Origin: Escherichia phage PH1061
Length of the DNA: 39,968 nt
Reading direction: 5' to 3' (one strand)
Sequence record: OQ680138.1
The notes under the pieces were generated by a model. The model ran no database searches and was not told the DNA's origin. It was given only the letters and a program-made list of their open reading frames with translations. Numbering within the stretch: the stretch's first letter is position 1; each line of letters starts with the position of its first letter. Of the stretch, positions 2,831 to 38,923 are shown in pieces. A program made the translations under genes and the position numbers.

Positions 2831-2845
2831 CAGGAGAAGAAGTAT

Positions 2846-3076
2846 ATGTCAATGAAACTTGTAGCACACAATAGAGTATTCAACGATGGGTCGGGAACTT
2901 GCCATGTAGAGCTGACTTATAAGGATTTAGTCATTCTCCGAGACAGATTACAAGCTGGTGTGACCGGGTGGATTCAACCTAACGAGTACAGCCTTATAGC
3001 CTCGATTGATGAAGTGCTTAAAGCGTGGATGGAAGACGAGCGCACTCAATATCCGTCATTCCCTATTATTAGATAA
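2846..3076 (+). CDS. Hypothetical protein, 76 aa, between gene 1 and gene 1.1 (no T7 counterpart recalled)
   Basis: ORF with RBS AGGAGAAGAAGTAT before ATG; tightly packed after RNAP. Confidence 0.6.
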   Translation: MSMKLVAHNRVFNDGSGTCHVELTYKDLVILRDRLQAGVTGWIQPNEYSLIASIDEVLKAWMEDERTQYPSFPIIR

Positions 3077-3086
3077 GGAGAGAGTT

Positions 3087-3302
3087 ATGAAATTTGCACA
3101 CAAGCAGGCTGGCGTTAAGGGCGGGACTCAGATCGTGACCGTAACAGAACACAACGGAAAGGGTCTGGTGAAGACCACGGTCATTCCTACCGAAATGTCA
3201 AAGCAGCTTAACGTCCCATTCAAGACCCTCGTCTATCTTGTGGAATCCAGCCACGAGAAATACCTGAAAGACGTAGTGTCAAAGCTGGAGCAGACCAAAT
3301 GA
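3087..3302 (+). CDS. Hypothetical protein, 71 aa
   Basis: Internal ATG of track ORF 3006..3302 preceded by RBS AAGGAGAGAGTT; the upstream part of the track ORF overlaps the previous gene. Confidence 0.55.
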   Translation: MKFAHKQAGVKGGTQIVTVTEHNGKGLVKTTVIPTEMSKQLNVPFKTLVYLVESSHEKYLKDVVSKLEQTK

Positions 3303-3376
3303 CAGACCTCCAGTTACTGGCCTTGTGGCTGGGAGCACTCGCAGTATTCACTTTAATCCAACGCAGAAGAGGTTAA
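3299..3376 (+). CDS. Possible small hydrophobic peptide (25 aa, MTDLQLLALWLGALAVFTLIQRRRG)
   Basis: ATGA start-stop overlap with the preceding ORF; single predicted TM helix; below the track size cutoff. Confidence 0.3.
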   Translation: MTDLQLLALWLGALAVFTLIQRRRG

Positions 3377-3399
3377 CCTAAACTATCACTATAGGATTA
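3377..3399 (+). promoter_or_regulatory. Phage RNAP promoter (phi1.1-like), CTAAACTATCACTATAGGA, +1 near 3394
   Basis: Consensus match. Confidence 0.8.
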
Positions 3400-3404
3400 G
3401 ACTC

Positions 3405-3431
3405 AAGGTCATGACTCAAAGTCGTGGCCTT
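3405..3431 (+). promoter_or_regulatory. RNase III-type processing hairpin (R1.1-like): 11-bp stem AAGGUCAUGAC / GUCGUGGCCUU, 5-nt loop
   Basis: Stem-loop read from sequence; paralogous to hairpins at 11404 and 34622 with compensatory changes; position matches T7 R1.1. Confidence 0.65.
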
Positions 3432-3473
3432 CATGATTAACCCTATAACCTAAACAACTGGAGATTTAACCAC

Positions 3474-3653
3474 ATGTATCAGAACACTATCAACTTAGAG
3501 CGCATCCGTGAACGTCAGCAGACTGAAGATTACATTCCTAAGGGCCGAAAGCTGAACAAGACCAAGCGTGGCGGTGGTGTCAAGGGTGCTTTCCGTAATG
3601 CTGAAGGCAAAGACTCTATGGTCAACCAAGAGAAATACTTCGTAGGAGCATAA
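3474..3653 (+). CDS. 1.1: Gene 1.1-like small basic protein, 59 aa
   Basis: KGRKLNKTKR motif matches T7 gp1.1 as recalled; RBS GGAG upstream; below track cutoff. Confidence 0.7.
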   Translation: MYQNTINLERIRERQQTEDYIPKGRKLNKTKRGGGVKGAFRNAEGKDSMVNQEKYFVGA

Positions 3654-3657
3654 CGCT

Positions 3658-3915
3658 ATGGGCCGACTTTATAGTGGCAACCTAAACGCTTTCAAAGCAG
3701 CGTGGAACAGGCTCTATCAGTTAGACTTCTGCGTGATACAGCAGGATTGGTACGATGCGCATCTTCGGAAAGAGTGCATGAGACTTCAAGTCGAGGACCG
3801 AGCTGGTAACATCTTCGCGCTTAAGACCTTCGCACACCGCGATGAAGACGTACTGTACAACACTGCAACAGGCTTCCTTAACTGTCTCGCTAACCAACTA
3901 GACACATGGAGATAA
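3658..3915 (+). CDS. 1.2: Gene 1.2 protein (inhibitor of host dGTP triphosphohydrolase), 85 aa
   Basis: N-terminus MGRLYSGNLNAFKAA matches T7 gp1.2; same length as T7 (85 aa). Confidence 0.85.
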   Translation: MGRLYSGNLNAFKAAWNRLYQLDFCVIQQDWYDAHLRKECMRLQVEDRAGNIFALKTFAHRDEDVLYNTATGFLNCLANQLDTWR

Positions 3916-3919
3916 CACA

Positions 3920-4942
3920 ATGACAACTATTAAAACTAACCCGCACCGCGCTGTAGATTACTCTGAGTCTGGTATTAAGAAGGCTCTGGAAGCTGCCGGG
4001 TCTCTAGAAGCTGAAGTGAAGTACGATGGTGTACGGTTGAACCTCCCGGTGCTTCGAGAGGGTGAGACCTATTGGTTAAGCCGTGAGTCTAAACCACTGC
4101 CAGCACTTGAGTGGATGAACTCTGAGTTAGGCAATGCGTGGACTCAGGCTGACTGGAGGTGGTTCCTTCGTCAAGCTGGCTATGAAGGTATCGGCCTTAT
4201 GATTGACGGCGAGGTCATGGTCAAAGGTGTTGACTTTAATACGTCCTCAGGTCTCATCCGAACGAAGTGGCTCAAGCCTAACAACGAGGAGTTCGCTGAA
4301 TGCTATCCGGGCCGTGGCAAGAAGGTCCCGTTCTGGGTAGCCAGGTCACGACTTCAGGTTGTGGTATATGGCGTTGTCGATATGACAACCATAGCAGACC
4401 CGAAAGCCGAAGGTCCTATCCATAGCGTCACACGCCTGAAGGCCGAAGCTATCGTCCCTCTCCTCCAGAAATACTTCCCGGAAATCGACTGGGTATTATC
4501 TGAGAGTCATACAGTGTTTAGCTTAGACGAGCTTACTGACTTGTATGAGAAGAAGAGAGAAGAGGGCCATGAGGGTCTGGTGGTTAAAGACCCACTTGGA
4601 CGCTGGAAGCGTGGCAAGAAGTCAGGTATGTTCAAGATGAAACCAAGCGAAGAGGCGGACGGTCACGTTGTGCGCCCTGTGTGGGGTACGGATGGCCTAG
4701 CCAACGAAGGCATGGTCATCGGATTTGACGTGATGCTCGAGAACGGGATGGAGGTCTCCGCAACTAACATTAGTCGCGCCCTTATGTCTGAGTTCACCGA
4801 AAACGTTAAGTCCGACCCTGATTATTATAAAGGCTGGGCCTGCCAGATTACCTACATGGAGGAGACACCAAGTGGCTTACTACGGCATCCCTCGTTCGAC
4901 CGGTGGCGTGGAACTGAGGACGACCCTACGGTCAAGATTTAA
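3920..4942 (+). CDS. 1.3: ATP-dependent DNA ligase, 340 aa
   Basis: Adenylation motif KYDGVR (EVKYDGVRLN); position after gene 1.2 as in T7. Confidence 0.9.
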   Translation: MTTIKTNPHRAVDYSESGIKKALEAAGSLEAEVKYDGVRLNLPVLREGETYWLSRESKPLPALEWMNSELGNAWTQADWRWFLRQAGYEGIGLMIDGEVMVKGVDFNTSSGLIRTKWLKPNNEEFAECYPGRGKKVPFWVARSRLQVVVYGVVDMTTIADPKAEGPIHSVTRLKAEAIVPLLQKYFPEIDWVLSESHTVFSLDELTDLYEKKREEGHEGLVVKDPLGRWKRGKKSGMFKMKPSEEADGHVVRPVWGTDGLANEGMVIGFDVMLENGMEVSATNISRALMSEFTENVKSDPDYYKGWACQITYMEETPSGLLRHPSFDRWRGTEDDPTVKI

Positions 4943-4952
4943 AGCAGACAGG

Positions 4953-5333
4953 ATGGCTCCCTCTGGAGTCTCCAACCTAAACGGTAGACATCTTGGTTAT
5001 AGACGAAAGGATGGGTACTGGATTCTAAGTACGACAAAGGGCCAACTGCTGGCCCACCGAGTAGTCTGGGAACTAACCCACGGCCAGATACCAGAAGGGA
5101 TGGTGATTGATCATATCAACCGGGACCCTTCGGATAACAGGATTGAGAACCTCAGGTGTGTGACTCAGGCGGTGAACCTCACTAACGTTCCAACCCGTAG
5201 TCACTGCCAATCTGGAGAGAAATACGTTCAATACCAGAAATCAACTGGTCGCTGGCAACTGAGGATAAAGCGTAAGTCATACGGTACGTTCGATACCATA
5301 GCCGAGGCGGTAGCCTTAAGAGATTCATTATAA
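4953..5333 (+). CDS. HNH homing endonuclease with C-terminal AP2-type DNA-binding domain
   Basis: Motif DHINRDPSDNRIENLR followed by an AP2-like segment GEKYVQYQKSTGRWQLRIKRKSYGTFDTIAEAVALRD; start set at the first ATG after the ligase stop (track ORF begins inside ligase). Confidence 0.8.
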   Translation: MAPSGVSNLNGRHLGYRRKDGYWILSTTKGQLLAHRVVWELTHGQIPEGMVIDHINRDPSDNRIENLRCVTQAVNLTNVPTRSHCQSGEKYVQYQKSTGRWQLRIKRKSYGTFDTIAEAVALRDSL

Positions 5334-5339
5334 CGTCAA

Positions 5340-5378
5340 CCCAGTGGTCTCATGACTGCTGGGTTTCTCTGCTTTGTG
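5340..5378 (+). terminator. Rho-independent terminator (early terminator TE analog): 10-bp stem CCCAGUGGUC / GACUGCUGGG, loop UCAU, then U-rich tail
   Basis: Read from sequence; located after ligase/HNH as T7 TE follows gene 1.3. Confidence 0.65.
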
Positions 5379-5411
5379 CTATCAATCTATCATCTGGGCC
5401 ACCAGGCTGAC

Positions 5412-5434
5412 CCTAAGCTATCACTATAGGACAA
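5412..5434 (+). promoter_or_regulatory. Phage RNAP promoter variant, TAAGCTATCACTATAGGA, +1 near 5429
   Basis: One mismatch to consensus at about -13. Confidence 0.7.
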
Positions 5435-5462
5435 CCATAACTTCGACCTAAGGAGGCCGACC

Positions 5463-5723
5463 ATGTTTAAGAACTTAATGTTCAATCGTTATACCAGTAC
5501 ATTCCACCTGTCTCACAACCCGTTCGCTTGCATTAAGCGCAACGAGAAGCTGGGCTACTTCGGGAAGGCCGTTAAGCTGTCACCTACAGTCTTCGCTCTG
5601 ATTACTCCGGGTAAAGCTGAAGAGGCTAGCCAGAAGCGTGAGACCAACGTACCTGTGGTCTACACCAAGTGGCCTCGTGTTCGCCTGTTCATTGAGTTCG
5701 TGAAGGAGGTGGTCAATGCTTAA
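5463..5723 (+). CDS. Hypothetical protein, 86 aa (gene 1.6 position)
   Basis: ORF with RBS AAGGAGG; positional analogy only. Confidence 0.6.
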   Translation: MFKNLMFNRYTSTFHLSHNPFACIKRNEKLGYFGKAVKLSPTVFALITPGKAEEASQKRETNVPVVYTKWPRVRLFIEFVKEVVNA

Positions 5724-6159
5724 GGTTGGGGATACAGTTGAATATGTTGGACCTGTTAAAGCCTACATGGGACTCTCCTGTGGCAAGGTGATTATGGTTA
5801 GAATGGGGCACATAGTTGTTGTTAAGTGGCCCTGTTCACCTGAACCAGTCATTCACTCCTCTAGTGCCTTAAGTATTACCAATCAGGAGCAGGCTGAGAC
5901 GCCAACCATAGGTCAGGAAGACAGCGTCCGTAAGCCGTCACACTATCAGGTCTTTGACGGTGTGGAATCCATTGGGATTATCGCTCGGTCCATGACTGTC
6001 AGTGAGTTCCGTGGTTTCTGCATGGGTAACGTCCTGAAGTATCGACTCCGAGCTGGTAAGAAGTCAGAGCTGGCGACTATGGAGAAGGACCTGAACAAAG
6101 CAGCCTTCTATCAGGAGCTGTTCGACCTGCATAAAGGTAAGTGCTATGACTCCAAGTAG
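5716..6159 (+). CDS. 1.7: Gene 1.7-like protein (T7 gp1.7 nucleotide kinase family), 147 aa, with a divergent N-terminal part
   Basis: C-terminal KPSHYQVFDGVESIGIIARSMTVSEFRGFCMGNVLKYRLRAGKKSELATMEKDLNKAAFYQELF matches the T7 gp1.7 C-terminus as recalled. Confidence 0.75.
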   Translation: MLKVGDTVEYVGPVKAYMGLSCGKVIMVRMGHIVVVKWPCSPEPVIHSSSALSITNQEQAETPTIGQEDSVRKPSHYQVFDGVESIGIIARSMTVSEFRGFCMGNVLKYRLRAGKKSELATMEKDLNKAAFYQELFDLHKGKCYDSK

Positions 6160-7152: not shown

Positions 7153-7604
7153 TGGCCCAATGGTCTGCAAAACGGGGGCACTCTGTGGGTGCCTACCGCT
7201 CTGGACTTGAAGCCAAGAACCAGCAGTGGCTGGAACAGAACGGCGTCAAAGCGGAGTACGAAAGCCATTATATCAACTATGTGATTCCGGCTTCCGACCA
7301 CAAGTACACACCAGATTTTATCCTTCCTAACGGTATCATCGTAGAGACCAAAGGTATCTTCGATAGTGATGACCGTAAGAAGCACCTTCTGATACGAGAA
7401 CAGCACCCAGAGTTAGACATCCGGTTCGTGTTCTCAAGTTCCCGCTCAAAGTTATACAAAGGGTCTCCGACCACGTATGGCGCATGGTGCGAAAAGAACG
7501 GCTATAAGTATGCCGATAAGTTCATCCCGGTTGAGTGGCTGCGAGAGGCGACTGTACGTCTGCCTTCAGGCCTACTCATTCCCAAGAAGAAAGGAGTTAA
7601 GTAA
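7152..7604 (+). CDS. 3: Endonuclease I (Holliday junction resolvase), 150 aa
   Basis: Colinear with T7 gp3 (149 aa) from memory; YTPDFILPNGIIVETKG block. Confidence 0.88.
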   Translation: MAQWSAKRGHSVGAYRSGLEAKNQQWLEQNGVKAEYESHYINYVIPASDHKYTPDFILPNGIIVETKGIFDSDDRKKHLLIREQHPELDIRFVFSSSRSKLYKGSPTTYGAWCEKNGYKYADKFIPVEWLREATVRLPSGLLIPKKKGVK

Positions 7605-8059
7605 TGACTACCTGTAAAGACCTTGAAGTTGGAACACGTTACAGATTCTCAAAGAACACCCTGCTGAATAATCCCCAATTCACTGATGCTGTTTTCGAAA
7701 AGCGAGAAGACCATAGCGTAATTGTGGAGAAGGGGTGGCATCCTGAGGATTACATCGGTGAGACTACCAGCTGGAATGGTCACGAGACCTACAGTGTAGA
7801 AGTTGTTGAACAGCCTCAGGTCCTTCCAGCTTCAAGTGTCCCTCCTGTCACCGTTAAACGTGAAGTCCTGACCATCAACAAGATTGGTGTAGGTCAGACG
7901 TTCATCGTCCACGGTAAGCCTGACGAAGTGTACGTGAAGATTAGCAACTCTCACGTCTTCAACCACAAGCGACTCCAGATGCACACGACTGACGCACAGC
8001 GCTTCCAGTCACATCTGAATCTGGTGGTAGTAGAACTAGTTGTTTATAATGGAAAGTGA
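7604..8059 (+). CDS. Hypothetical protein, 151 aa, between endonuclease I and lysozyme (no T7 counterpart)
   Basis: ORF with ATGA-type coupling to gene 3 and RBS AAAGGAG; no recognisable motif. Confidence 0.6.
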   Translation: MTTCKDLEVGTRYRFSKNTLLNNPQFTDAVFEKREDHSVIVEKGWHPEDYIGETTSWNGHETYSVEVVEQPQVLPASSVPPVTVKREVLTINKIGVGQTFIVHGKPDEVYVKISNSHVFNHKRLQMHTTDAQRFQSHLNLVVVELVVYNGK

Positions 8060-8420
8060 CTGCATCGAGTGGGCTAAGAGTCGCAATAAGGATGGCTATG
8101 GTAGACGTAAATTCCGTGGTCAATCTATGGGTGCTCATAGAGCAGCTTGGATAGAGACCAATGGTGCTATACCGGGAGGTCTTGTCGTAAGACACAAGTG
8201 TGATAACCGTGCATGCGTAAACATTGAGCACCTTGAGTTGGGGACTCAGGCAGAAAACATGATGGACTGCTCAGTACGCAGGACATTTAATTCAAAACTA
8301 ACTGAAGATGACGTTGAGGATATTCGCACCTCAAGCGAGACCCTTAAGTTTATGGCTGAAAAATACTCAGTAAGTGAGACAACCATAAGTCGAATCAGGA
8401 ACCACAAGAGGTGGAAATAA
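8049..8420 (+). CDS. HNH homing endonuclease (family B), about 123 aa
   Basis: Motif RHKCDNRACVNIEHLELGTQAEN; lower GC than surroundings; paralog of 26877..27326. Confidence 0.8.
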   Translation: MESDCIEWAKSRNKDGYGRRKFRGQSMGAHRAAWIETNGAIPGGLVVRHKCDNRACVNIEHLELGTQAENMMDCSVRRTFNSKLTEDDVEDIRTSSETLKFMAEKYSVSETTISRIRNHKRWK

Positions 8421-8422
8421 TA

Positions 8423-8887
8423 ATGGGAAGTAAAGTACAATTCATGCCACGCAAGTCAACTGACGCTATCTTCGTTCACTGTTCGGCTACCAAGCCAGAT
8501 ATGGACATCGGGGTAGAGACCATCCGTATGTGGCATAAACAGCAAGGCTGGCTGGACGTAGGCTACCACTTTATCATCAAGCGCGATGGCACTGTGGAAG
8601 AGGGTCGCCCGGTCAATGTCGTAGGGTCACACGTTAAGGACTGGAACTCCAAGTCCGTAGGCGTCTGCCTTGTAGGTGGAATTGACGCTAAGGGCAAGTT
8701 TGAAGCTAACTTCACTCCGGCCCAGATGAACTCCCTGCGCAACAAGCTGGAGGAGCTTATGAGTAAGTACCCTAATGCAGAGCTAATGGCCCATCATTCA
8801 GTAGCAGCCAAGGCCTGTCCGAGTTTCGACGTGAAGCGATGGTGGACCAAGAATGAACTGGTTACATCTGACCGCGAATCAGTTTAG
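8423..8887 (+). CDS. 3.5: Lysozyme / N-acetylmuramoyl-L-alanine amidase (T7 gp3.5 homolog)
   Basis: DAIFVHCSATKP, WLDVGYHFIIKRDGTVEEGR and CPSFD match T7 lysozyme; start set at ATG with RBS rather than the track's upstream start. Confidence 0.93.
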   Translation: MGSKVQFMPRKSTDAIFVHCSATKPDMDIGVETIRMWHKQQGWLDVGYHFIIKRDGTVEEGRPVNVVGSHVKDWNSKSVGVCLVGGIDAKGKFEANFTPAQMNSLRNKLEELMSKYPNAELMAHHSVAAKACPSFDVKRWWTKNELVTSDRESV

Positions 8888-9209
8888 TATCGACCCATCT
8901 AGTCCCTCAGGTCTATCCAGAAATGGTAAGCCTACTGGATGGGACGCTGGTAGATATTGGAGGACTAAGGTTAAAGGGAGGCCAGTAATGTGCCACGTCA
9001 TAATCATGATGCTCAAAACTGGAGGTCCTCTACCCGATGGAATGGAAGTTGACCATATTGACCGTGACGGCCATAACAACAGGATTGACAACCTCAGGAT
9101 TGTGACTAGGCAAGTCAACGTATGCAACACCAGCGTTAGGAAGGACTCAAAGTCTTTCAAAACATCTAATGGAGCCATCGAATGGCTAGGGGAGCAACTC
9201 AATGATTAA
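8853..9209 (+). CDS. HNH homing endonuclease (family A), about 118 aa
   Basis: Motif VDHIDRDGHNNRIDNLRIVTRQVN; overlaps the 3' end of the lysozyme gene; lower GC; paralog of 4953..5333. Confidence 0.75.
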   Translation: MNWLHLTANQFSIDPSSPSGLSRNGKPTGWDAGRYWRTKVKGRPVMCHVIIMMLKTGGPLPDGMEVDHIDRDGHNNRIDNLRIVTRQVNVCNTSVRKDSKSFKTSNGAIEWLGEQLND

Positions 9210-24589: not shown

Positions 24590-26872
24590 ATGGCTAGTAA
24601 TATTGAATCAGCTCTGGCTAATCGGACTATGGGTCGCGGCAGAGCGCCGGGTAAAACTATCGCTGTCAACTATCAAGCAGCCAGCATTCAGGCTCCGACT
24701 GGTGACTCCGGTCTGGCTCGTGCATTAACCAACTTCGTTGAGTCTGGGACTGGATTATACAAGCAGTTCAAAGACGAGGAGAAGACACGGGCCGACGAGC
24801 GGTCTAACGAGATTATCCGTAAGTTGACACCTCAGCAGAGACGTGAGGCTATCCAGAACGGCACATTGCTGTATCAGGATGACCCTTACGCTATGGAAGC
24901 ACTTCGAGTCAAGACTGGTCGTAATGCTGCCTTTGCTGTAGACGACGAGATTAACGTTAAGATTCAGAACGGTGAGTTCCGCACACGTCAGGAAATGGAA
25001 GAATATCGCCACCAGCGACTTCAGGATGCCGCTAAGTCCTATGCTGAAGAGGCGGGTATTAACCCTACCGATGAGTTCTTCCAGCGCGGGTTCAACGATA
25101 ACATCACTGACCGCAACATCGCTATCTATGGGTCCTTCAATAAGTATTTCAGTAAGCAGTCTGAAGAGACAGCAATGTTGAATACTCGTATTGAGATGAA
25201 CTCATTCCTGAACGATGGCGACCTGATGCGCTCACCTGAGTCCGGTAAGACCTTCATGGCCTACCTTCGTGATGGACTGACTACTGCTGCTATTCCTTCG
25301 GACCAGCGAGCACGGGAGGTCATTACCCAGACGGTCCGTGACGCAATCCAGAAGTCCGGCGGCTCAAACTTCCTACAGCAAGTACGAGGTGAGCGAATCA
25401 CCCTTAACGGTGTGGATGCTACAGTCGAAGAGATTGTAGGACCGGATGTCTTCAACGCTGCCATTGTTGAGGCACAAGGCACTGAGTACAAGCTGGTGGC
25501 TAAGTATCAGGAAGACTTGGCGTTAGGCGTTCAGTCTGCGATTCTTCAGGATGACCCGACCATAGGGCTGGCCCAGATTCAGAAACTCAAGGAGCAGAAC
25601 AACCTGCTTCAGCCGGGTGAAGAACTCACGCCTCAGCGTCAGATGCTTATTAATGCCGAAGCCAGCTTACTGGAAGCGGTCAAGCGGAAGTCTGCTGAAC
25701 AGGCGAAGGAGAACACTAAGTTAATCCAGACTCAGAACAAGCAACTGGTCATTGACCAAGTGTATCAGCGACGTCTGGCTGGGGATAACGTGTCCACCAA
25801 CTATGAGGACCTTCCGGTCTCAGATGCTACAGGCGAGTTCAAGCGTTCTGACATGAACAACTATGCGTCTGCCAAGCTACAGCAGATTGACCAGATGGAC
25901 ATTCCTGAGGCTGCTAAAGACGCTCAGAAGGTGGCATTGTTAAGAGCTGACACTAACAACGGTCCGTTCCGTAATGCCTTCCAGACGCTGACTCAGGACG
26001 CTGCTGGTGAGTGGCAATCTGCGGTAATCCGTGGACAGTACGACCCAGACAAGATGCAACGCTTCGAATCTCTTCGTCGGGCCTACACTCAGGACCCTTC
26101 AAGTTTTGCTGCTCTGTATCCTGACCAAGCCCAGTTGTTCTCTACGTTCGACCAGATGGACAAGATGGGTCTGGACCCTCAGACGATGATTGAAGCTGAT
26201 AAACAAGCTGCAAGTCAAAGCCGTGAGATGCGCATGGAGTCAGACAAGGCGTGGCAGGAGTTGAAGAACGACTCTCGGAATAAGGACCTTTCGCGTCTTC
26301 CTACGTCTCTGGACTCAAGTGCTCGTAAGGTCTGGGACTCATGGTACTATCGTACAGGTAACGCTGACGCTGCCACTCAGCAGACTCAACGCTGGCTGAA
26401 TGAGAACACCGTAACGTTCCAGTCTGAAGGTTCTGACGGTAAGTCCATCGGCATGGTGTCCAAGCACCAGCTTATGGTCGGGGATAACCCAGAGTCGTGG
26501 CAGGTTGGTCGAGACATTATCGACACCGCTCGTAAGCAGCTCATTAAGGCCAACCCTTGGGTAGTGAACTCTCAGTTGTCCGTTGTTGAACAGAACGGCT
26601 CTATCTTCCTCCAAGACGCTACAGGGACTATTCGTATTCGCTACGATAAAGAACTTGTAGGTAAACTCTACCGCGAACAACAGCAGAAGGCACAAGATGC
26701 CGCATACGCTCAGGCAGAACGTGACGCTAACAAGAGAGCGCGTATCGTCGGGACTAAAGCTGCTGGTGACAAACGTCGAGCTGACCGAGAGGCCAACATC
26801 GAGAAGCGCGGAGGGATGTACAATGACGTCTCATTGGAGGGTATCGCAAACGTACTAATCGGTAAGGAGTAA
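24590..26872 (+). CDS. 15: Internal virion protein C (gp15-like), 760 aa
   Basis: Size and position of T7 gp15 (747 aa); RBS GAGGAGG. Confidence 0.88.
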   Translation: MASNIESALANRTMGRGRAPGKTIAVNYQAASIQAPTGDSGLARALTNFVESGTGLYKQFKDEEKTRADERSNEIIRKLTPQQRREAIQNGTLLYQDDPYAMEALRVKTGRNAAFAVDDEINVKIQNGEFRTRQEMEEYRHQRLQDAAKSYAEEAGINPTDEFFQRGFNDNITDRNIAIYGSFNKYFSKQSEETAMLNTRIEMNSFLNDGDLMRSPESGKTFMAYLRDGLTTAAIPSDQRAREVITQTVRDAIQKSGGSNFLQQVRGERITLNGVDATVEEIVGPDVFNAAIVEAQGTEYKLVAKYQEDLALGVQSAILQDDPTIGLAQIQKLKEQNNLLQPGEELTPQRQMLINAEASLLEAVKRKSAEQAKENTKLIQTQNKQLVIDQVYQRRLAGDNVSTNYEDLPVSDATGEFKRSDMNNYASAKLQQIDQMDIPEAAKDAQKVALLRADTNNGPFRNAFQTLTQDAAGEWQSAVIRGQYDPDKMQRFESLRRAYTQDPSSFAALYPDQAQLFSTFDQMDKMGLDPQTMIEADKQAASQSREMRMESDKAWQELKNDSRNKDLSRLPTSLDSSARKVWDSWYYRTGNADAATQQTQRWLNENTVTFQSEGSDGKSIGMVSKHQLMVGDNPESWQVGRDIIDTARKQLIKANPWVVNSQLSVVEQNGSIFLQDATGTIRIRYDKELVGKLYREQQQKAQDAAYAQAERDANKRARIVGTKAAGDKRRADREANIEKRGGMYNDVSLEGIANVLIGKE

Positions 26873-26876
26873 CATA

Positions 26877-27326
26877 ATGAAGAACGGGACAGCCAGTGAG
26901 AGACTGGCAGAACTGTCAGTAACCGAAGAGTCTGGCTGTATCCGCTTCACCGGAAGCATTGAGAAGTCCGGTTATGGAAGGATAATGATTAATAGGGTAA
27001 AATATGGAGCGCATAGACTTGCTTACGAGCTTGCTAATGGTCCTATACCCGATGGGTACGTTGTTCGCCATAAATGCGACAACCCGTCCTGTATAAACCC
27101 AAGCCACCTTGAAGTTGGCACACAAGCTGACAACATAAAGGATAAGGTGACTAGAGGTCGCCAAGCATCAGGATGCTCCATAGGAGTATCTAAGCTCACT
27201 GAGGAAATTGTGAGAGACATAAGGTCCAGCGACCTAAAGGTTTCACTCTTGGCGGAACGATATGGAGTGAGTACGGTTTCTATTAGAAATATATTGAGGA
27301 GAAAGACATGGCAACACGTGGTGTAA
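26877..27326 (+). CDS. HNH homing endonuclease (family B), 149 aa, inserted between genes 15 and 16
   Basis: Motif RHKCDNPSCINPSHLEVGTQADN; paralog of 8049..8420; lower GC. Confidence 0.8.
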   Translation: MKNGTASERLAELSVTEESGCIRFTGSIEKSGYGRIMINRVKYGAHRLAYELANGPIPDGYVVRHKCDNPSCINPSHLEVGTQADNIKDKVTRGRQASGCSIGVSKLTEEIVRDIRSSDLKVSLLAERYGVSTVSIRNILRRKTWQHVV

Positions 27327-30300
27327 GGAACGCAAATCCGGGCAATATCCGTAAGTCAAAAGACCAGTGGGAAGGTGCTATAGGCGATGATGGTGCATTC
27401 GTTATCTTCGACAGTCCTGAATCTGGGGTCCGAGCATTAGCGAAAAACCTTCAAAGCTACGGTCGCCAAGGTTATGACTCCATCGAGAAGATTATCAACC
27501 GTTGGGCACCTCCGAACGAGAACGACACTCAGTCCTACATCGACTCGGTTGTATCTGCGACTGGTATTCCTGCAACTCAAAGTCTCGACCTATCGGACCC
27601 TGACACCCTGTCTTCTCTGGCTCAAGCTATCAGCTTCCATGAGACAGGCTCCCGGTACGACCCTGAAGTCTATCAGAAGGGAGTCGCACGAGCACTCAAT
27701 GGCATTAGCCCAAAGACTCCACCAGTAAGCGCTAACGTATTTGACGCACTCACGGAAGGACTCAAGGCTAAACCTAAAGTAGCTCTGGGCGAGAACCTTC
27801 CGACCGCTGCTGGTCTAAACATTGAGGGTCAAACACCTGAAGCTCCCAACGAATCGTTCGGGGAGATGTTCTATAAAGCTACTGGGGAGACCATGCAGGA
27901 ACGAGAGGACCGCTCTACGTGGTTCGGTTTTGGTGCTGCTACAGAAGCTGAAGTGAAGAACTCTATGGTCGGCGTGGCTATCCGCGCTGGTCAGACCGAG
28001 GACTCACTTGATGTCATTGGCGATGTGTTTAACCCTACCAGATGGAACAACCATAAGTGGACTCGCGAGGAGCTGGACCAGATTCGTAACGCGGGGGTTC
28101 TGCCTCAGTATTACGGAGTCATTACTGGTGGCTCTCCTCAGAACCTGACCGAGCTTATTAACTTGGCGCTTGAGAACCAGAAGTTGGACCAAGAGAAGGC
28201 CAAGGCTGGGACTGGCGCTCAGTTAGCTGCTGGTGTTATTGGTGCTGGTGTAGACCCTCTGACATACGTTCCTATTGCTGGACAGGTTGGTAAGGGCGCT
28301 AAGCTGGTTAATAAGATGTTCACCGTGGCTGCTCAATCTGGGGCACTGGTTGGTGTGTCTGAGATGGCCCGTACATCAGTGGCTGGTGGTGATGCTCATG
28401 TGGCTGAGGCTATCCTTGGTGGTGCTCTCTTCGGTGGTGGTATGACTGCTATCGCTGATGGCTTAGGCAGAGCCTTAGGTCGTAACACTAACGAGTTCGC
28501 TGGCCCAGCTACACGTCTGGAAGCCCGTGAGACTGCACGTAATGTTGATGGTCAGGACCTGTCTCGTCTACCTATTCAGGAAGGTGAGCAGACCTTTAGT
28601 CATCAAGGTGTTAAGTTCGCAGACGTTCCGAACGAGCCGGGTAGTGTACGACTGGAAGATGGTTCAATCCTGATTGGTGAGAACCCTCTGAACCCTAAGA
28701 CACGTCAAGTCTTTGACGAAGTGATTGAGCCAGAACGTGCCGCTGCTGGTGTGAACCTTGGTGGACTTACCGAGATTGGCCTGAAGCTGCTTCGGTCTGA
28801 GAACCCTGAGATTCGTGGAGTAGCTGCTGACTTAGTGCGTTCACCGACTGGTATGCAGTCTGGGGCCTCAGGTAAAATCGGGACCACTGCATCTGACGTA
28901 TTCGAGAGACTTCGTGCTGTAGACCATCGGTTCTACAACGACATCGACGATGCTGTTACTGAGGCACTCAAGGACCCTTACTTCCAGACAGCATTCTGGC
29001 GAGATAACTCAGCTCTGCGTGAGGATGTTTATAAGCGTTCGGCTTTGGCTATTGAGGATGGTAGCGGGAACCTGAAGGCTGAACTTACTCCGGGGGAACT
29101 GAAAGTCTATGACCTGCTGAAGAACCAGTTTGATGCAAAGCGCGAGATGATGGAGAACCCAGCGATGTTCGGTCGTACAGACGCTCAGTCTATCTTTCCT
29201 GGTAGTAGATTCAAGGGGACCTACGTTCCTGTAGTCTATAGTTCTCAGATGAAGCAGCTTTATATCAAGGAGCTTGGAAGCCCAGAGTCATTACAGGAGG
29301 CAATCAAGAAGTCATGGCTGACAAGCTATGTGTCAAGACCTGAAGTCAAGGCGCGAGTGGACGAGATGTTAGCAGAGCAGTTACGGGCGTCTCAGCCAGC
29401 AGCAGGTAAGACTGTGGGTACTACACCTAATCATCGTTCTTCTGTAGAAGCAGCCCGTGACCAGATGAAACTAGATGATGCCGCTACACAGGCAAGTGAT
29501 AAGGTAGCGGAACTAAAAGATGTCCTGACCAACGCTGAGAAGAGAGTTGCAGACCGTGAAAAGAAACTCCAGAACTCCAAGGACAGACTGGCTTCGCATG
29601 AAGCTAAGCTGAAGGAGTTGGAAGAAAAACTAGCTGCTAAACCTAAGAGCAAGACCATTCCTGTTAAGATTGAGAGTCGGAAGCAGATGATTGAGACCCA
29701 GAAGTCTCACGTCCGTATTAACACCGAGCGTCTCGACTACATGAAAGGACAGGCTGATAAGGTTCGAGATAGAATCACCAAAGCAACAACTGAAGCTGAA
29801 GCTGCTGTGGCATCTGCCAAAGGGCAGAAGTCTTCTGTAGATGGTCAGGCCACTACTGCTGGTGAAACTACATCTGGTAACGCATCTCAAGCAGCACCAG
29901 AGGTGACTATGGATATGGTAGAGAAGTATGCTAATGATAAGGCTTATGGTGTCTCCCATACAGAGCAGTTTGAGCGTTCATCCGTAATGGAAGAAAACAT
30001 CAACGGTCTGGTTGGTCTGGAGAACAATAACTTCCTTGAGGCTCGAAACCTGTTCGATAACGACATGGAAATCACCTTGCCAAATGGTAAGCCGTTCAGC
30101 GTAAATAGTCTACGTGAGTGGGATATGGACAAGATTGTCCCGGCCTACAACCGTCGAGTTAATGGTGACATTGCTATCATGGCTGGTACAGGAAAGACCA
30201 CGAAGGACATGAAGTACTTGGTTGAGACCATGATGAACAAGGCTGGTGATGACGGCAAGTTGAAAGGTGAGGTCTCGACCTTACGTGACACCTTGAAGAT

Positions 30301-31696
30301 TCTCACTGGTCGTGCTCGACGTGATGGTGCTGACGATGCTGCCTTCGCTACCGTGATGCGTACAATGACAGACCTATCGTTCTTCTCTAAGAATGCCTAC
30401 ATGGGTGTTCAGAACTTAACGGAGATTGGTGGTATGCTATCTCGTGGTAACGTTCGTGCATTGCTACATGGAGTCCCTATATTCCGTGACCTAGCCTTCC
30501 GTAACAAGAAGGTAGGGGCCTCAGAGATTAAGGACCTGCACAACGTTATCTTCGGTAAGGAACTGGATGACTCAATCCGTCCGTCTAAACAGGATGTCAT
30601 TGACCGTCTTCGAGCGTACAGTGCCTTGAGTAAACCATCGGCTACAGCTCTTGGGACTGCCAAGTATTACACTGGTGAACTTGCAGTACGCTCTCCGTTC
30701 ACTAAAGTCCTCAACGGTACGACCAACTACCTGTTAGACGCTGGACGTCAAGGCTTCCTGTCTGACATCGTGGAGCATAGTCTGACTGGTAGTAAGCGTA
30801 AGTTCGATGACCGCTGGCTGAAGACCTCTGGTATCTCTGACGAGCAGTGGAAGGGTATTAAGTCCCTAATCCGTGAGTCAGTGACTCGTGGTCCAGACGG
30901 GAAGTATACCATCAAGGATAAGAAGGCGTTCAGTCAGGACCCAAGGGCTATGGACCTGTGGCGTATGGGTGACACCATCGCTGACGAAACGTTACTCCGG
31001 CCCCACAAGCTGTCAAACATGGACGCCAAGGCTTATGGTCCTCTCGCTAAGACTGTCCTTCAGTTTAAGAACTTCGTCATCAAGTCCATCAATGGGCGTA
31101 CCATGCGAACCTTTTATAACGCCACGAAGAACAACCGAGCGATGGATGCTGCTCTGTCCACTGTGATGTCTATGGGTCTTGCTGGTATATACTACATGGC
31201 GCAGGCACACATCAAGGCTTACGCTATGCAGGATGGTCGTGACCGTGACTACCTCAAGCAAGCTCTGGACCCGACGATGATCGGATATGCGGCTCTGTCC
31301 CGTAGTTCACATCTCGGTGGACCACTTGGGGTAGCTAACATTCTGGGTGGTATCGCTGGGTACGAGGACACTAAGATGCTCCGTTCGTCTATCCTACCTC
31401 GGTCGCCTACAGAGAAGCCTGAACGTGCCATCGCGTATGGTGCAGCTACAAGTGACCCTGTGATGAATATTGTTGGCAACTTCTTGGAGCAGGTTCCAGC
31501 TTTCGGATATGCTGCTAACGTCGGCGCTTCGGCTTACAACTTGGCTGGTTACCTCAAGGCTGATACTCGTGTCAACGAGCGTGACTACATGACCGGGATG
31601 TATAATACGTTCCGTGAACTGGTTCCGAACGACCCCATTACCCAGAAGCTGTTGCTTGGAACGTTTGAGGAGCAAGGTATCCACATCAAGGACTAA
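27308..31696 (+). CDS. 16: Internal virion protein D (gp16-like), 1462 aa, with divergent N-terminal domain and an internal coiled-coil insertion
   Basis: Long colinear blocks with T7 gp16 from STWFGFGAATEAE... to the C-terminus (for example RSPTGMQSGASGKIG, NGDIAIMAGTGKTTK, LLDAGRQG). Confidence 0.93.
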   Translation: MATRGVRNANPGNIRKSKDQWEGAIGDDGAFVIFDSPESGVRALAKNLQSYGRQGYDSIEKIINRWAPPNENDTQSYIDSVVSATGIPATQSLDLSDPDTLSSLAQAISFHETGSRYDPEVYQKGVARALNGISPKTPPVSANVFDALTEGLKAKPKVALGENLPTAAGLNIEGQTPEAPNESFGEMFYKATGETMQEREDRSTWFGFGAATEAEVKNSMVGVAIRAGQTEDSLDVIGDVFNPTRWNNHKWTREELDQIRNAGVLPQYYGVITGGSPQNLTELINLALENQKLDQEKAKAGTGAQLAAGVIGAGVDPLTYVPIAGQVGKGAKLVNKMFTVAAQSGALVGVSEMARTSVAGGDAHVAEAILGGALFGGGMTAIADGLGRALGRNTNEFAGPATRLEARETARNVDGQDLSRLPIQEGEQTFSHQGVKFADVPNEPGSVRLEDGSILIGENPLNPKTRQVFDEVIEPERAAAGVNLGGLTEIGLKLLRSENPEIRGVAADLVRSPTGMQSGASGKIGTTASDVFERLRAVDHRFYNDIDDAVTEALKDPYFQTAFWRDNSALREDVYKRSALAIEDGSGNLKAELTPGELKVYDLLKNQFDAKREMMENPAMFGRTDAQSIFPGSRFKGTYVPVVYSSQMKQLYIKELGSPESLQEAIKKSWLTSYVSRPEVKARVDEMLAEQLRASQPAAGKTVGTTPNHRSSVEAARDQMKLDDAATQASDKVAELKDVLTNAEKRVADREKKLQNSKDRLASHEAKLKELEEKLAAKPKSKTIPVKIESRKQMIETQKSHVRINTERLDYMKGQADKVRDRITKATTEAEAAVASAKGQKSSVDGQATTAGETTSGNASQAAPEVTMDMVEKYANDKAYGVSHTEQFERSSVMEENINGLVGLENNNFLEARNLFDNDMEITLPNGKPFSVNSLREWDMDKIVPAYNRRVNGDIAIMAGTGKTTKDMKYLVETMMNKAGDDGKLKGEVSTLRDTLKILTGRARRDGADDAAFATVMRTMTDLSFFSKNAYMGVQNLTEIGGMLSRGNVRALLHGVPIFRDLAFRNKKVGASEIKDLHNVIFGKELDDSIRPSKQDVIDRLRAYSALSKPSATALGTAKYYTGELAVRSPFTKVLNGTTNYLLDAGRQGFLSDIVEHSLTGSKRKFDDRWLKTSGISDEQWKGIKSLIRESVTRGPDGKYTIKDKKAFSQDPRAMDLWRMGDTIADETLLRPHKLSNMDAKAYGPLAKTVLQFKNFVIKSINGRTMRTFYNATKNNRAMDAALSTVMSMGLAGIYYMAQAHIKAYAMQDGRDRDYLKQALDPTMIGYAALSRSSHLGGPLGVANILGGIAGYEDTKMLRSSILPRSPTEKPERAIAYGAATSDPVMNIVGNFLEQVPAFGYAANVGASAYNLAGYLKADTRVNERDYMTGMYNTFRELVPNDPITQKLLLGTFEEQGIHIKD

Positions 31697-31760: not shown

Positions 31761-33881
31761 ATGTCCACTATTACACAATTCCCTTCAGGCAACACTCAGT
31801 ACAGGATTGAGTTCGACTACCTAGCCAGAACGTTTGTTGTTGTTACGCTGGTGAATAGCTCTAACCCTACCCTGAACCGTGTACTGGAAGTTGGTCGAGA
31901 TTACCGATTCCTTAATCCAACGATGATTGAGATGTTGGTTGACCAATCAGGTTTCGACATCGTTCGTATTCACCGTCAGACTGGAACTGACTTAGTAGTA
32001 GACTTCAGGAATGGCTCAGTGTTGACAGCTAGTGACCTGACCAATGCAGAGCTTCAGGCTATCCATATTGCAGAAGAAGGTCGAGACCAAACTGTTGACT
32101 TAGCGAAGGAATATGCCGATGCTGCTGGTAGCTCTGCTGGCAACGCTAAGGATAGCGAGGACGAAGCACGACGAATCGCTGCGACTATCAAGGCAGCTAG
32201 TCTAGTTGGTTATATTACCCGTCGCTCCTTCGAGAAAGGCTTCAACGTTACAACATGGAACGAGGCCCTGCTATGGGAAGAGGATGGCGATTATTACCGC
32301 TGGGATGGTACGCTTCCAAAGAACGTTCCTGCTGGCTCAACTCCTGAAACGTCTGGTGGCATTGGGTTAGGAGCGTGGGTTAGTGTCGGCGATGCTACAT
32401 TGCGCAATCAAATATCTGACCCTGACGGTGCCACTAAGTACCCAGCGTTACAAATTGCGCGTTGGCGTGATGAAGGAGATGTGCGCGGTTGGGGTACTGG
32501 CGAAGAAGGTTTTAACGCCGCGATGTCTGAGTTGTCAGCTAATGGGGGTGGCACACTATTCGTTAATGAGGATATACTCTTTACATCCCTTCCTATTATG
32601 CACAAAGAGCATGTAACTGTGCGATGGAACGCTGTAGCTAAAGTTAAGTCAGGCTTGACTGCTGAATATGCTTATATAATGGATGGTGGAGCAGATACTC
32701 CTGCATACAACAGTTCCCATCACTTTACTAAAGCTAACAAAACAAATTGCTATAACCTCTTCTTAGTAGCAGAGGATTATACAACAGGTATTTCTGCTAA
32801 AGGTGTTTGTGTGCGCCATTGCTACGAATGGACTTACGAAGGGGGGGCAATTATCGGGTTTAATAATGGAGGTTTCTACGAGACTAACAACTACGAAGGA
32901 AAAGCCAGCAAATTCACGATGGTTGTAGCTAATACAAGACTTGATAATTCTGTAGGATTTGAAAGTAATTCAACTGACAGTTGGTTTAGTGAACTTTCTC
33001 CAGTTGGTTATTCAATTGGTCTAAAGTTTAATAAGAGCGCAAATGTGGTTGATAAGGCACACCCCTGGGGTAATACAGTTAACAATCTTGTAGGCGCAAT
33101 GGGGCAGATGAATGTTGGTATTGTAATTACAGAGAACGCAGGTTTTTCTACATATTCAAATATTATTCTTGATACTCCGGTAAGGAAGAACACCAATAAG
33201 ACACCATCTAGAAGCAATGGTGGGGTTGGTGTAATTTGTGATGCATGGGACTGCGTTCTTGATGGTATTCTTGTATTACCGTCCAGACATGACACAGTAG
33301 CAAAAAGTACCTTACCAATGATCACCACTATGCAAAGATCAACAATAAAAGATTTTCAGGTTTCGGGGGAGCAGTATGTAACAGACATATGGATTTCATT
33401 TGAAAACAATTCAGGGATAGCCAGGAATCACGTTTCAGGTTATGGGTATGCTGAAAAAATGCGTACAGGAATGACCTTTGGACCCAATTCAGGGGCTGTT
33501 CTTGCAAGTGCTGATGGTGTAACGATGTCGAGCCAAACTCTGACCTCTGGAATATGGTATAACACATTAAGTTTTTCCATAGCTACAACAATAACAGCTA
33601 TACCGTCAGCAACAGGTGATGTAATTGTTAATATAACTCCTGCTTATGGCGTTAAATCTGGATTCGGTGGTACAGTTAAGGGTGGCATGTACGCATTTTA
33701 CTACGCCACAGCAAACTCAGCCAAACAATTATATGATGTTTCCTTAGAGGTAGTGTCAGATAATACCGCTAAGTTCTTATTGACATTCATAGATGGAACT
33801 ACTCGGTACGCACACTGGACAGATGTATCTAACGGTTCAGCAAGAGCCATAAGTATATCAGGAGTCATTAATATAAAATAA
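31761..33881 (+). CDS. 17: Tail fiber/tailspike, 706 aa: T7 gp17-like N-terminal adaptor domain fused to a non-T7, AT-rich C-terminal receptor-binding module
   Basis: N-terminal FDYLARTFVVVTLVN...DYRF...LQAIHIAEEGRD matches the T7 gp17 N-terminus; downstream part has no T7 similarity and a clear GC drop from about 32560. Confidence 0.9.
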   Translation: MSTITQFPSGNTQYRIEFDYLARTFVVVTLVNSSNPTLNRVLEVGRDYRFLNPTMIEMLVDQSGFDIVRIHRQTGTDLVVDFRNGSVLTASDLTNAELQAIHIAEEGRDQTVDLAKEYADAAGSSAGNAKDSEDEARRIAATIKAASLVGYITRRSFEKGFNVTTWNEALLWEEDGDYYRWDGTLPKNVPAGSTPETSGGIGLGAWVSVGDATLRNQISDPDGATKYPALQIARWRDEGDVRGWGTGEEGFNAAMSELSANGGGTLFVNEDILFTSLPIMHKEHVTVRWNAVAKVKSGLTAEYAYIMDGGADTPAYNSSHHFTKANKTNCYNLFLVAEDYTTGISAKGVCVRHCYEWTYEGGAIIGFNNGGFYETNNYEGKASKFTMVVANTRLDNSVGFESNSTDSWFSELSPVGYSIGLKFNKSANVVDKAHPWGNTVNNLVGAMGQMNVGIVITENAGFSTYSNIILDTPVRKNTNKTPSRSNGGVGVICDAWDCVLDGILVLPSRHDTVAKSTLPMITTMQRSTIKDFQVSGEQYVTDIWISFENNSGIARNHVSGYGYAEKMRTGMTFGPNSGAVLASADGVTMSSQTLTSGIWYNTLSFSIATTITAIPSATGDVIVNITPAYGVKSGFGGTVKGGMYAFYYATANSAKQLYDVSLEVVSDNTAKFLLTFIDGTTRYAHWTDVSNGSARAISISGVINIK

Positions 33882-34155: not shown

Positions 34156-34350
34156 ATGATTGAGTTAGACTTCAAGAATGAGGCCCTTAAAGCCTCTCCT
34201 ATCGTCGGGACCGCTGCGGCTGATGGTGCCAGTCGGTTCTTCTTCGGACTTACACTGAACGAATGGTTCTACGTTGCAGCTATCGCGTACACCGTTGTCC
34301 AGATTGGTGTGCTAGTCTACAAAACGATTAAAGGAGGTGGTAAAACATGA
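34156..34350 (+). CDS. 17.5: Holin (T7 gp17.5-like), 64 aa
   Basis: SPIVGTAAADGASRFFFGLTLNEWFYVAAIAYTVVQIG matches the T7 holin; one TM segment. Confidence 0.92.
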   Translation: MIELDFKNEALKASPIVGTAAADGASRFFFGLTLNEWFYVAAIAYTVVQIGVLVYKTIKGGGKT

Positions 34351-34711: not shown

Positions 34712-35161
34712 ATGCTCGAATTTTTAAAGAGAGCGGCTCCGTGGTTACTTGCAGCAGTGATGTTTGCTGGTGGCTACCACACCGCTAACAATAAGTGGGA
34801 GGCTAAGGTCAATGCAGAATACACCTCGAATCTTAAGGCATCGGAAGATACAAGGCTTGCTGTCCAAGCTGAAGTCAACAAAGTGTCCAAGCGGTTTCAG
34901 GACGAAATGTCCTCGCTGGAAGGCAGCACTGATAGGATTATTGCTGACCTTCAGTCTGACAATAAGCGGCTGCTCATCCGAGTCAAACCTACGAGTGGAA
35001 CCACGCAAAGTGACGGTCGATGCGTCATTGATGGTTACGCCGAACTTGACGAACGAGATGCTAAACGTCTTATCGCCATCGGAGTGAAAGGGGACAAGTG
35101 GATTAAGGCACTTCAGGACACTGTGAGGGCCTTGCAGCAAGATAAGGAGGTGACGCATTGA
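34712..35161 (+). CDS. 18.5: Inner-membrane spanin (Rz-like, gp18.5), 149 aa
   Basis: N-terminal TM segment then coiled-coil periplasmic region; position after gene 18. Confidence 0.85.
34812..35087 (+). CDS. 18.7: Outer-membrane lipoprotein spanin (Rz1-like, gp18.7) embedded in the +1 frame of gene 18.5
   Basis: Lipobox LTISGC; [12 protein letters not shown] and [18 protein letters not shown] match T7 gp18.7. Confidence 0.85.
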   Translation: MQNTPRILRHRKIQGLLSKLKSTKCPSGFRTKCPRWKAALIGLLLTFSLTISGCSSESNLRVEPRKVTVDASLMVTPNLTNEMLNVLSPSE

Positions 35162-38413: not shown

Positions 38414-38923
38414 ATGGAACGTAACGCTAACGCGTACTATGAGCTGCTGGCTGCAACTGTTGAAGCATTTAACGAGTGCATTCAGTACGACAAAATAGCT
38501 GAAGGTGATGACTACCATGATGTGCTGCATGAAGTCGTAGATAGTCATGTTCCGCACTATTACCACGAGATTTTCACGGTGATGGCTGCTGATGGTATAG
38601 ACATTGAGTTTGAGGACACTGGGCTGATGCCTGAGACCAAGGACGTAACGCGTATACTGCAGGCTCGCATCTATGAGGCATTGTATAACGACGTGTCTAA
38701 TAGCTCGGATGTGGTCTGGTTTGAGGCTGAAGAGAGCGACGAGGATGACGAATATTGGGTGGTTGACGCTACGACAGGTGTAATCATTGAGCAAGCTGTA
38801 TCACTTGATGTCGCTACTGCATGTGCCAAAGATCACTATGCGCTAGGTCGCCACCTGAAGGTCGAGGACATCAACGATAACGTAGTGTTCGACCCTGCGG
38901 CTGCTGAAGAGGACTGCGAGTAA
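38414..38923 (+). CDS. 0.3: Ocr-like DNA-mimic anti-restriction protein (gene 0.3) with a roughly 50 aa C-terminal extension, 169 aa
   Basis: [45 protein letters not shown] matches T7 Ocr [45 protein letters not shown]; T7 Ocr is 117 aa. Confidence 0.9.

Follow-up and report, generated by a model that had tools for sequence, protein, structure and literature searches.

The internal virion protein gp16 of phage T7 carries an SLT (GH23) lytic transglycosylase domain at its N-terminus, and the gene 16 homologue of Escherichia phage PH1061 (record OQ680138.1) raises the question of what stands at that place in a protein with a T7-like body. The window, by which we mean the whole stretch of 39,968 nucleotides that was analysed, belongs to a T7-like phage of the genus Kayfunavirus (K1F-like). 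Its gene 16 (27308-31696; this gene, its parts and the genes adjoining its start all lie on the plus strand) encodes an internal virion protein D, or ejectosome protein, of 1462 amino acids that begins MATRGVRNANPGNIRKSKDQWEG. We consider it highly likely that residues 1 to about 131 form a peptidoglycan-cleaving domain of the Enc34/PM2-P5 type set on a T7-like body, a non-orthologous replacement of the SLT domain, and that this replacement would act at entry.

The assignment of the gene itself is supported by profile, sequence and synteny. The full-length protein matches phrog_342, "internal virion protein with endolysin domain", with E=0, and the T7 gp16 chains 7eyb_I and 6yt5_G as well as 9vvp_L (Gp29), each with E=0 in a phmmer search of PDB sequences. 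A GAGGAG Shine-Dalgarno sequence lies 5' of the start codon, which agrees with the start of the solved homologue 9vvp_L. The gene order gp13-gp14-gp15-(HNH)-gp16-gp17 is that of T7 and of Citrobacter phage CR44b, as read from Pfam Phage_T7_Gp13 and T7_gp14, from phrog_1339 for gp15 and from Phage_T7_tail on the next open reading frame (ORF). Gene 15 (24590-26872; phrog_1339, E=0; synteny with CR44b and T7) encodes internal virion protein C, the ejectosome partner of gp16.

An Enc34-type domain at the N-terminus of gp16

The domain at residues 1-131 (27308-27700), which stands in place of the T7 SLT domain, is of the Enc34-endolysin / PM2-P5 (PHA02564) muralytic type. It was named by the PHROGs and PDB sequence searches only; in the latter, residues 3-123 matched the Enc34 endolysin's catalytic domain (7q47_A) with E 2.1e-13 (phmmer). 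An AlphaFold2 model of the N-terminal region built with 22 homologues has the all-helical fold of 7q47, with a mean pLDDT (predicted local distance difference test) of 88.8; the blocks of residues 1-130 lie at 88-98 and residues 131-160 at 54-70. Among the matches listed in either of two structural searches there was no SLT or GH23 structure, and the Foldseek match to 9vvp_W lies on the N-terminal domain, which thus appears to be at least partly modelled in the core structure of phage E1004.

The Enc34 domain (PHA02564) shows muralytic activity on cells of E. coli, P. aeruginosa and H. alvei with a permeabilised outer membrane, and its authors proposed Trp79, Tyr95 and Glu131 as a catalytic signature and argued for a GH73-like N-acetylglucosaminidase mechanism (PMC8943055). 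By alignment to 7q47 all three have counterparts in gp16: Trp66 (codon TGG, 27503-27505, motif RWAPP), Tyr77 (TAC, 27536-27538) and Glu112 (GAG, 27641-27643, motif fHETGs). Conservation was counted over 272 collected domains of the family. The position of E112 holds Glu in 261 of 266 domains and is invariant in the alignment of Enc34-type domains (A1), that of Y77 holds Tyr in 267 of 271, and that of W66 holds W, Y or F in 269 of 271. The family-invariant positions R4, N10, N13, W21, G23, D28, F31, F34, G40, R42, A43, P68, N72, Y77, E112 and G114 are kept in gp16, and the RNNNPGNI loop of the family reads RNANPGNI, a single substitution.

An earlier note on this DNA had claimed that the N-terminal domain differs from that of T7, and Pfam, BLASTP, hhalign and tblastn all agree with it, although only the first ~131 residues are unrelated. 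Scans of residues 1-220 and of the full-length protein with Pfam gave neither SLT nor any other lytic domain even at E<=1, while the Pfam SLT model (PF01464) found residues 1-200 of T7 gp16, the positive control, with 107 bits and E 5e-31; an NCBIfam scan of the N-terminus gave no match. We also aligned the SLT-type gp16 proteins of six genera (Teseptimavirus, Teetrevirus, Przondovirus, Ghunavirus, Unyawovirus and Warsawvirus; alignment A2), in which a Glu-Ser motif near the N-terminus, followed by G-x-M-Q and A-Y-N-x-G, is invariant. None of these three blocks occurs in the N-terminus of the window's gp16, which bears out the remark that the SLT motifs were missing. Moreover, the sensitive profile search set beforehand as the test that could overturn the claim, an hhalign comparison of the Enc34-type alignment with the SLT alignment, returned a probability of only 0.9%. 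A relocation of the SLT domain to another site in the genome was considered and rejected, as tblastn with residues 1-150 of T7 gp16 over the whole window found no SLT-like sequence (best E 2.5). The apparent 36% identity to T7 gp16 over residues 1-50 in a MAFFT global alignment was dismissed as a gap-ridden artefact.

The border with the T7-like part was placed by three comparisons. In the PDB search the phmmer alignment to T7 gp16 begins only at residue 126, opposite T7 residue 153; when the first 220 residues of the two proteins are compared by BLASTP, only residues 125-198 align, to T7 152-220, with 31% identity; and a multiple alignment shows a junction G-I-[ST]-P-K, residues G132-K136 of the window's gp16, that is common to the window, CR44b, MP2, T7 and AP5. 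The linker that starts at this motif (residues 132-199; 27701-27904) is weakly T7-like and predicted to be flexible. Identity of 40-68% per 50-residue block is reached only from about residue 200, where the first part of the body begins (residues 200-691, 27905-29380; phmmer domain 1 aligns 126-690 to T7 153-715); the second part comprises residues 863-1462 and the stop codon (29894-31696; domain 2 aligns 863-1461 to T7 719-1314). The earlier statement that the protein is colinear with T7 gp16 from about residue 200 is thus right as to the homology of the body; the shared backbone already starts at G132, however, and colinearity is broken by an insertion at residues 692-862. The GC content of the N-terminal domain (~50-52%) is like that of its surroundings and gives no sign of recent transfer.

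Proposed entry role and alternative readings

The suggestion that the wall-penetrating module had been replaced is supported, with a domain of the Enc34-endolysin / PM2-P5 (PHA02564) type as the replacement. Since this is itself a muralytic-type domain, peptidoglycan cleavage at entry was most likely kept by a non-orthologous module and not lost. By analogy with T7, gp16 would be stored in the core stack of the capsid and ejected through the tail at infection. Once in the periplasm its N-terminal domain would cut murein glycan strands locally, with Glu112 acting as general acid and Trp66 and Tyr77 positioning the substrate, after which a gp14-gp15-gp16 channel would span the cell wall and the DNA would enter. 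The enzyme would probably be a hydrolytic glycosidase, like the GH73-like N-acetylglucosaminidase proposed for Enc34, and not a lytic transglycosylase. What the analysis establishes is homology, fold, the retention of the proposed catalytic residues, the place of the domain within the gene and its distribution; the catalytic activity, bond specificity and entry role of the window's gp16 we infer from its correspondence with Enc34 and T7.

Several points weigh against this reading. The lytic domain of T7 is reportedly dispensable under standard conditions, so that an entry role in the present phage may be conditional. The window's gp16 departs from the family consensus at two places, with RNANPGN for RNNNPGN and HETG for HENG. 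Peptidoglycan degradation has been demonstrated for Enc34 ORF39deltaC only and is deduced for gp16 of this type; the roles of the Enc34 Trp, Tyr and Glu rest on structural superposition, not on mutagenesis (PMC8943055); and, as to bond specificity, the related M4Lys is reported, in the form in which PMC8943055 cites it, with both glucosaminidase and endopeptidase products.

Whether the exchange was adaptive in its chemistry is a separate matter. A hydrolytic GH73-like glycosidase at entry, selected as such in Kayfunavirus and in the Morganella and Providencia phages rather than brought in by neutral shuffling of modules, seems doubtful to us. If it were true, the enzyme would have no need for the free C6 hydroxyl of N-acetylmuramic acid that lytic transglycosylases require, so that murein with O-acetyl groups or other modifications could be tolerated; escape from host GH23 inhibitors and release of non-anhydro muropeptides would be further consequences. 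Morganella and Providencia hosts O-acetylate their peptidoglycan, which is the sole hint in favour, and the domain-bearing T7-like records recovered from these hosts are MmP1, MP2, Lilpapawes, phiA020 and PSTRCR_128; other T7-like phages of Morganella, Providencia or Proteus may have an SLT-type gp16. An explanation by O-acetylation does not suit Kayfunavirus, whose hosts are E. coli and Salmonella.

We regard it as unlikely that the domain is catalytically dead in gp16, with no function beyond a structural one or one in murein binding or core assembly. The conditional dispensability reported for the T7 activity would suit such a role, as would the small departures from the consensus, one beside the Glu and one in the N-terminal loop, and the apparent presence of the domain in the 9vvp core model. 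All three signature residues and nearly all the family-invariant positions are kept, however, and the Glu and Tyr are kept as well in CR44b and in the 47%-identical gp16 of Morganella phage MP2, a pattern that points to purifying selection acting at the active site.

A muralytic domain at entry is also to be preferred over one acting mainly as a second endolysin at lysis, a role that we find very improbable even though homologues in chi-like phages are true endolysins and one Kayfunavirus paper places a "peptidoglycan transglycosylase" among the lysis genes. The domain is fused to a core/ejection protein of 1462 amino acids encoded between gp15 and gp17, and gp16 has no signal sequence, signal-anchor-release segment or transmembrane partner like the C-terminal transmembrane domain of Enc34. 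Its close homologues are virion components; the annotation of CR44b gp16 mentions matches in virion mass spectrometry, an indirect sign that gp16 is one. Moreover, the phage has a lysis cassette of its own, with an amidase (Amidase_2, 8411-8887), a holin (34156-34350) and an Rz spanin (34712-35161), so that the gp16 domain is not needed as an endolysin.

That the N-terminus is an orthologous SLT/GH23 lytic transglycosylase diverged past recognition, with no replacement at all, is scarcely credible. The Enc34 domain is all-helical and related, in permuted form, to the lysozyme alpha-lobe, a helical fold that it shares with SLT and for which ancient common ancestry with GH23 and GH73 has been argued (PMC8943055), and the sole stretch that hhalign paired, without significance, sets an F-sPEyGIRA-A helix against an r-nPE-aIdA-A helix. 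But E112, the proposed catalytic Glu, stands close to the C-terminal end of the domain and that of SLT in a Glu-Ser motif near the N-terminus (E37), there is no profile similarity by hhalign, and the T7-like body begins at a sharp boundary.

Relatives, the gene 15/16 junction and a sporadic insertion

The first 453 nucleotides of gene 16 (27308-27760) are 97% identical to those of Escherichia phage vB_EcoP-22664UKE3-2 and 93.6% identical to those of CR44b. Enc34-type N-termini of gp16 were found in about 230 T7-like phage records, comprising Kayfunavirus and kin, where identity is at least 80%, and Morganella and Providencia phages, where identity in the domain is 44-48% (MmP1, MP2, PSTRCR_128). 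By comparison, tblastn with the T7-type SLT N-terminus matched 1,139 phage records, mostly T7-like, the weakest being other phages of ~77 kb; the SLT domain is the one found in T7 and in most Studiervirinae, the gp16 of Berlinvirus A7 included. The Enc34-type family as a whole is far from confined to gp16. In a library of 1.84 billion proteins it counts 11,807 clusters at 50% identity (E<=1e-3), and its architectures include small stand-alone "structural proteins" of the PM2 P5 type, chi-like endolysins, tape-measure proteins, Mu-like virion proteins and an epsilon15/phiV10 protein.

The solved T7 gp16 (7eyb, 7k5c, 6yt5) shares with the window's protein the gene position, the body from GI[ST]PK onward and the presumed role, that of a protein which is ejected, forms a channel and bears a wall-cutting module at its N-terminus, whereas the two heads, Pfam SLT/GH23 and Enc34-type, are unrelated by sequence. 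E1004 Gp29 is a gp16 of the same kind with a solved structure (9vvp, "Core proteins of the bacteriophage E1004", released 2025-11-12). It is near-identical to the window's protein in residues 1-691, N-terminal domain included, and again in residues 863-1462, and differs in its length of 1295 amino acids against 1462, as it is without the insertion; a literature search for 9VVP/E1004 found no paper. The gp16 proteins of the Morganella and Providencia phages (MmP1 and MP2, both Minipunavirus, and PSTRCR_128) have the same Enc34-type head, T7-like body and junction motif, but differ in their lower identity in the domain and in a Y in place of W66; their head may go back to an old acquisition in common or have been gained independently.

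Outside gp16, the closest relative of the domain (53-55% identity) is in the 837-residue "head protein" of epsilon15/phiV10 (phiV10 gp18), likewise a large protein encoded beside internal virion proteins in enterobacterial podophages; there the domain is internal (residues ~250-370) and the carrier protein unrelated. In PM2 P5, the P5-like proteins of Vinavirales and NO16 GP11 the family also serves as a virion-associated lysin, and many GenBank homologues are labelled "structural protein P5", yet the proteins in question are small and stand alone, in tailless phages that contain a membrane, and have no fusion to an ejectosome protein. The ORF39 endolysin of Hafnia phage Enc34 (7q47, PMC8943055) differs in that the window's domain is the N-terminus of an ejected core protein, presumably acting at entry.

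Between genes 15 and 16 there is a gene for an HNH homing endonuclease of the T7 gp7.7 family (26877-27326); it shares 19 nucleotides with the start of gene 16. Its product matches Pfam HNH_3 (E 1.9e-17) and phrog_59 and is 50% identical to T7 gp7.7; the CR44b counterpart is annotated "7.7C homing endonuclease". The gene has a GC content of ~46% against ~52% in its flanks and is present in some Kayfunaviruses and absent from others. In the Klebsiella Przondoviruses NK20 and phi1_146039, which have an SLT-type gene 16, an HNH gene also adjoins the start, so that homing beside the swapped module appears to recur at the 15/16 junction. An endonuclease at this place may promote exchange of the adjacent N-terminal module by co-conversion. 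Promoter and terminator scans around the junction gave no more sites than shuffled sequence. Two more HNH_3 ORFs (8040-8420 and 8853-9209) lie on either side of the T7-lysozyme-type amidase gene, which brings the HNH genes of this phage to at least three.

The insertion that interrupts the T7-like body is an in-frame, coiled-coil-rich segment of 171 amino acids (residues 692-862; 29381-29893) that is absent from T7 gp16, where it would fall at residues 716-718, and from 9vvp Gp29. It was found in only 19 phage records, always within gene 16, from T7-like phages of Escherichia, Shigella, Klebsiella, Enterobacter, Kosakonia and Yersinia that belong to several genera. Most Kayfunaviruses are without it, among them the phage closest in the N-terminal region, and at least one carrier, Berlinvirus A7, has an SLT head. 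Its GC content (~47%) is below that of its surroundings. An intein or an enzyme was considered and set aside, the only matches being weak ones to SMC, Rad50 and filament-like coiled coils. The segment has the look of a cargo or spacer module that is exchanged sporadically, at a site where the ejected protein tolerates insertion. In Shigella phage VB_Ship_A7 (Berlinvirus), with a gp16 of 1644 amino acids (790-5724 of the piece examined), a larger insert occupies the same site; residues ~870-1100 comprise, besides the coiled-coil module, a further segment that has a GNAT motif (…VSEKYRRKGIATEMY…) and scores 23.1 bits against Pfam Acetyltransf_1, just over the cutoff of 20.7 (E 9e-5). Judged by its sequence, this segment may be an acetyltransferase domain borne by an internal virion protein that is ejected.

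Elsewhere in the window, the genome is circularly permuted with respect to the T7 map, with the RNA polymerase gene at 149-2830 and a homologue of ocr (gene 0.3) at 38414-38923, near the right end. Directly after endonuclease I, at the place of T7 gene 3.5, an ORF of 151 amino acids (7604-8059) encodes a product that is not an amidase and matches only PHROGs of unknown function (phrog_16385, phrog_15211). The gp17 homologue (31761-33881) has the N-terminal adaptor of the T7 tail fibre, then Tail_spike_N (TSP1/Gp66), then a long C-terminal part with no Pfam match; it is a receptor-binding protein of the tailspike type and not a T7-like fibre.

Annotation and meaning

GenBank records OL362275, OQ860980, OM256482 and PQ821641 match 27308-27760, and many such records, as well as some papers, name the product "peptidoglycan lytic exotransglycosylase" or "transglycosylase"; other labels given to non-SLT gp16 proteins are "MltF" and, in JSS1, "endo-type membrane-bound chitopentaose". 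The transglycosylase labels have been carried over from T7 and find no support in the domain evidence. Neither of the Pfam and NCBIfam copies searched holds a model for the Enc34/PM2-P5 family, so the domain goes unnamed in routine annotation. Our literature search, which did not cover the K1F genome paper (Scholl & Merril 2005), found no paper explicitly naming the head of Kayfunavirus gp16 as Enc34/P5-type, and none linking Enc34 to gp16 of the T7 group.

That virion-associated lysins are exchanged as modules among the internal proteins of podophages is well documented (review PMC5380687), and the head swap described here is real but ordinary, a genus-wide trait with a close homologue already solved structurally. 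The picture of T7-like infection is unchanged by it, and its main practical value lies in the correction of annotation and in a natural comparison of SLT and Enc34-type heads. The T7-like phages offer a natural experiment, one ejectosome body with two non-orthologous wall-cutting heads, and their comparison could show what an entry lysin contributes, whether in dependence on temperature or growth phase, in relation to murein modifications or through muropeptide signals.

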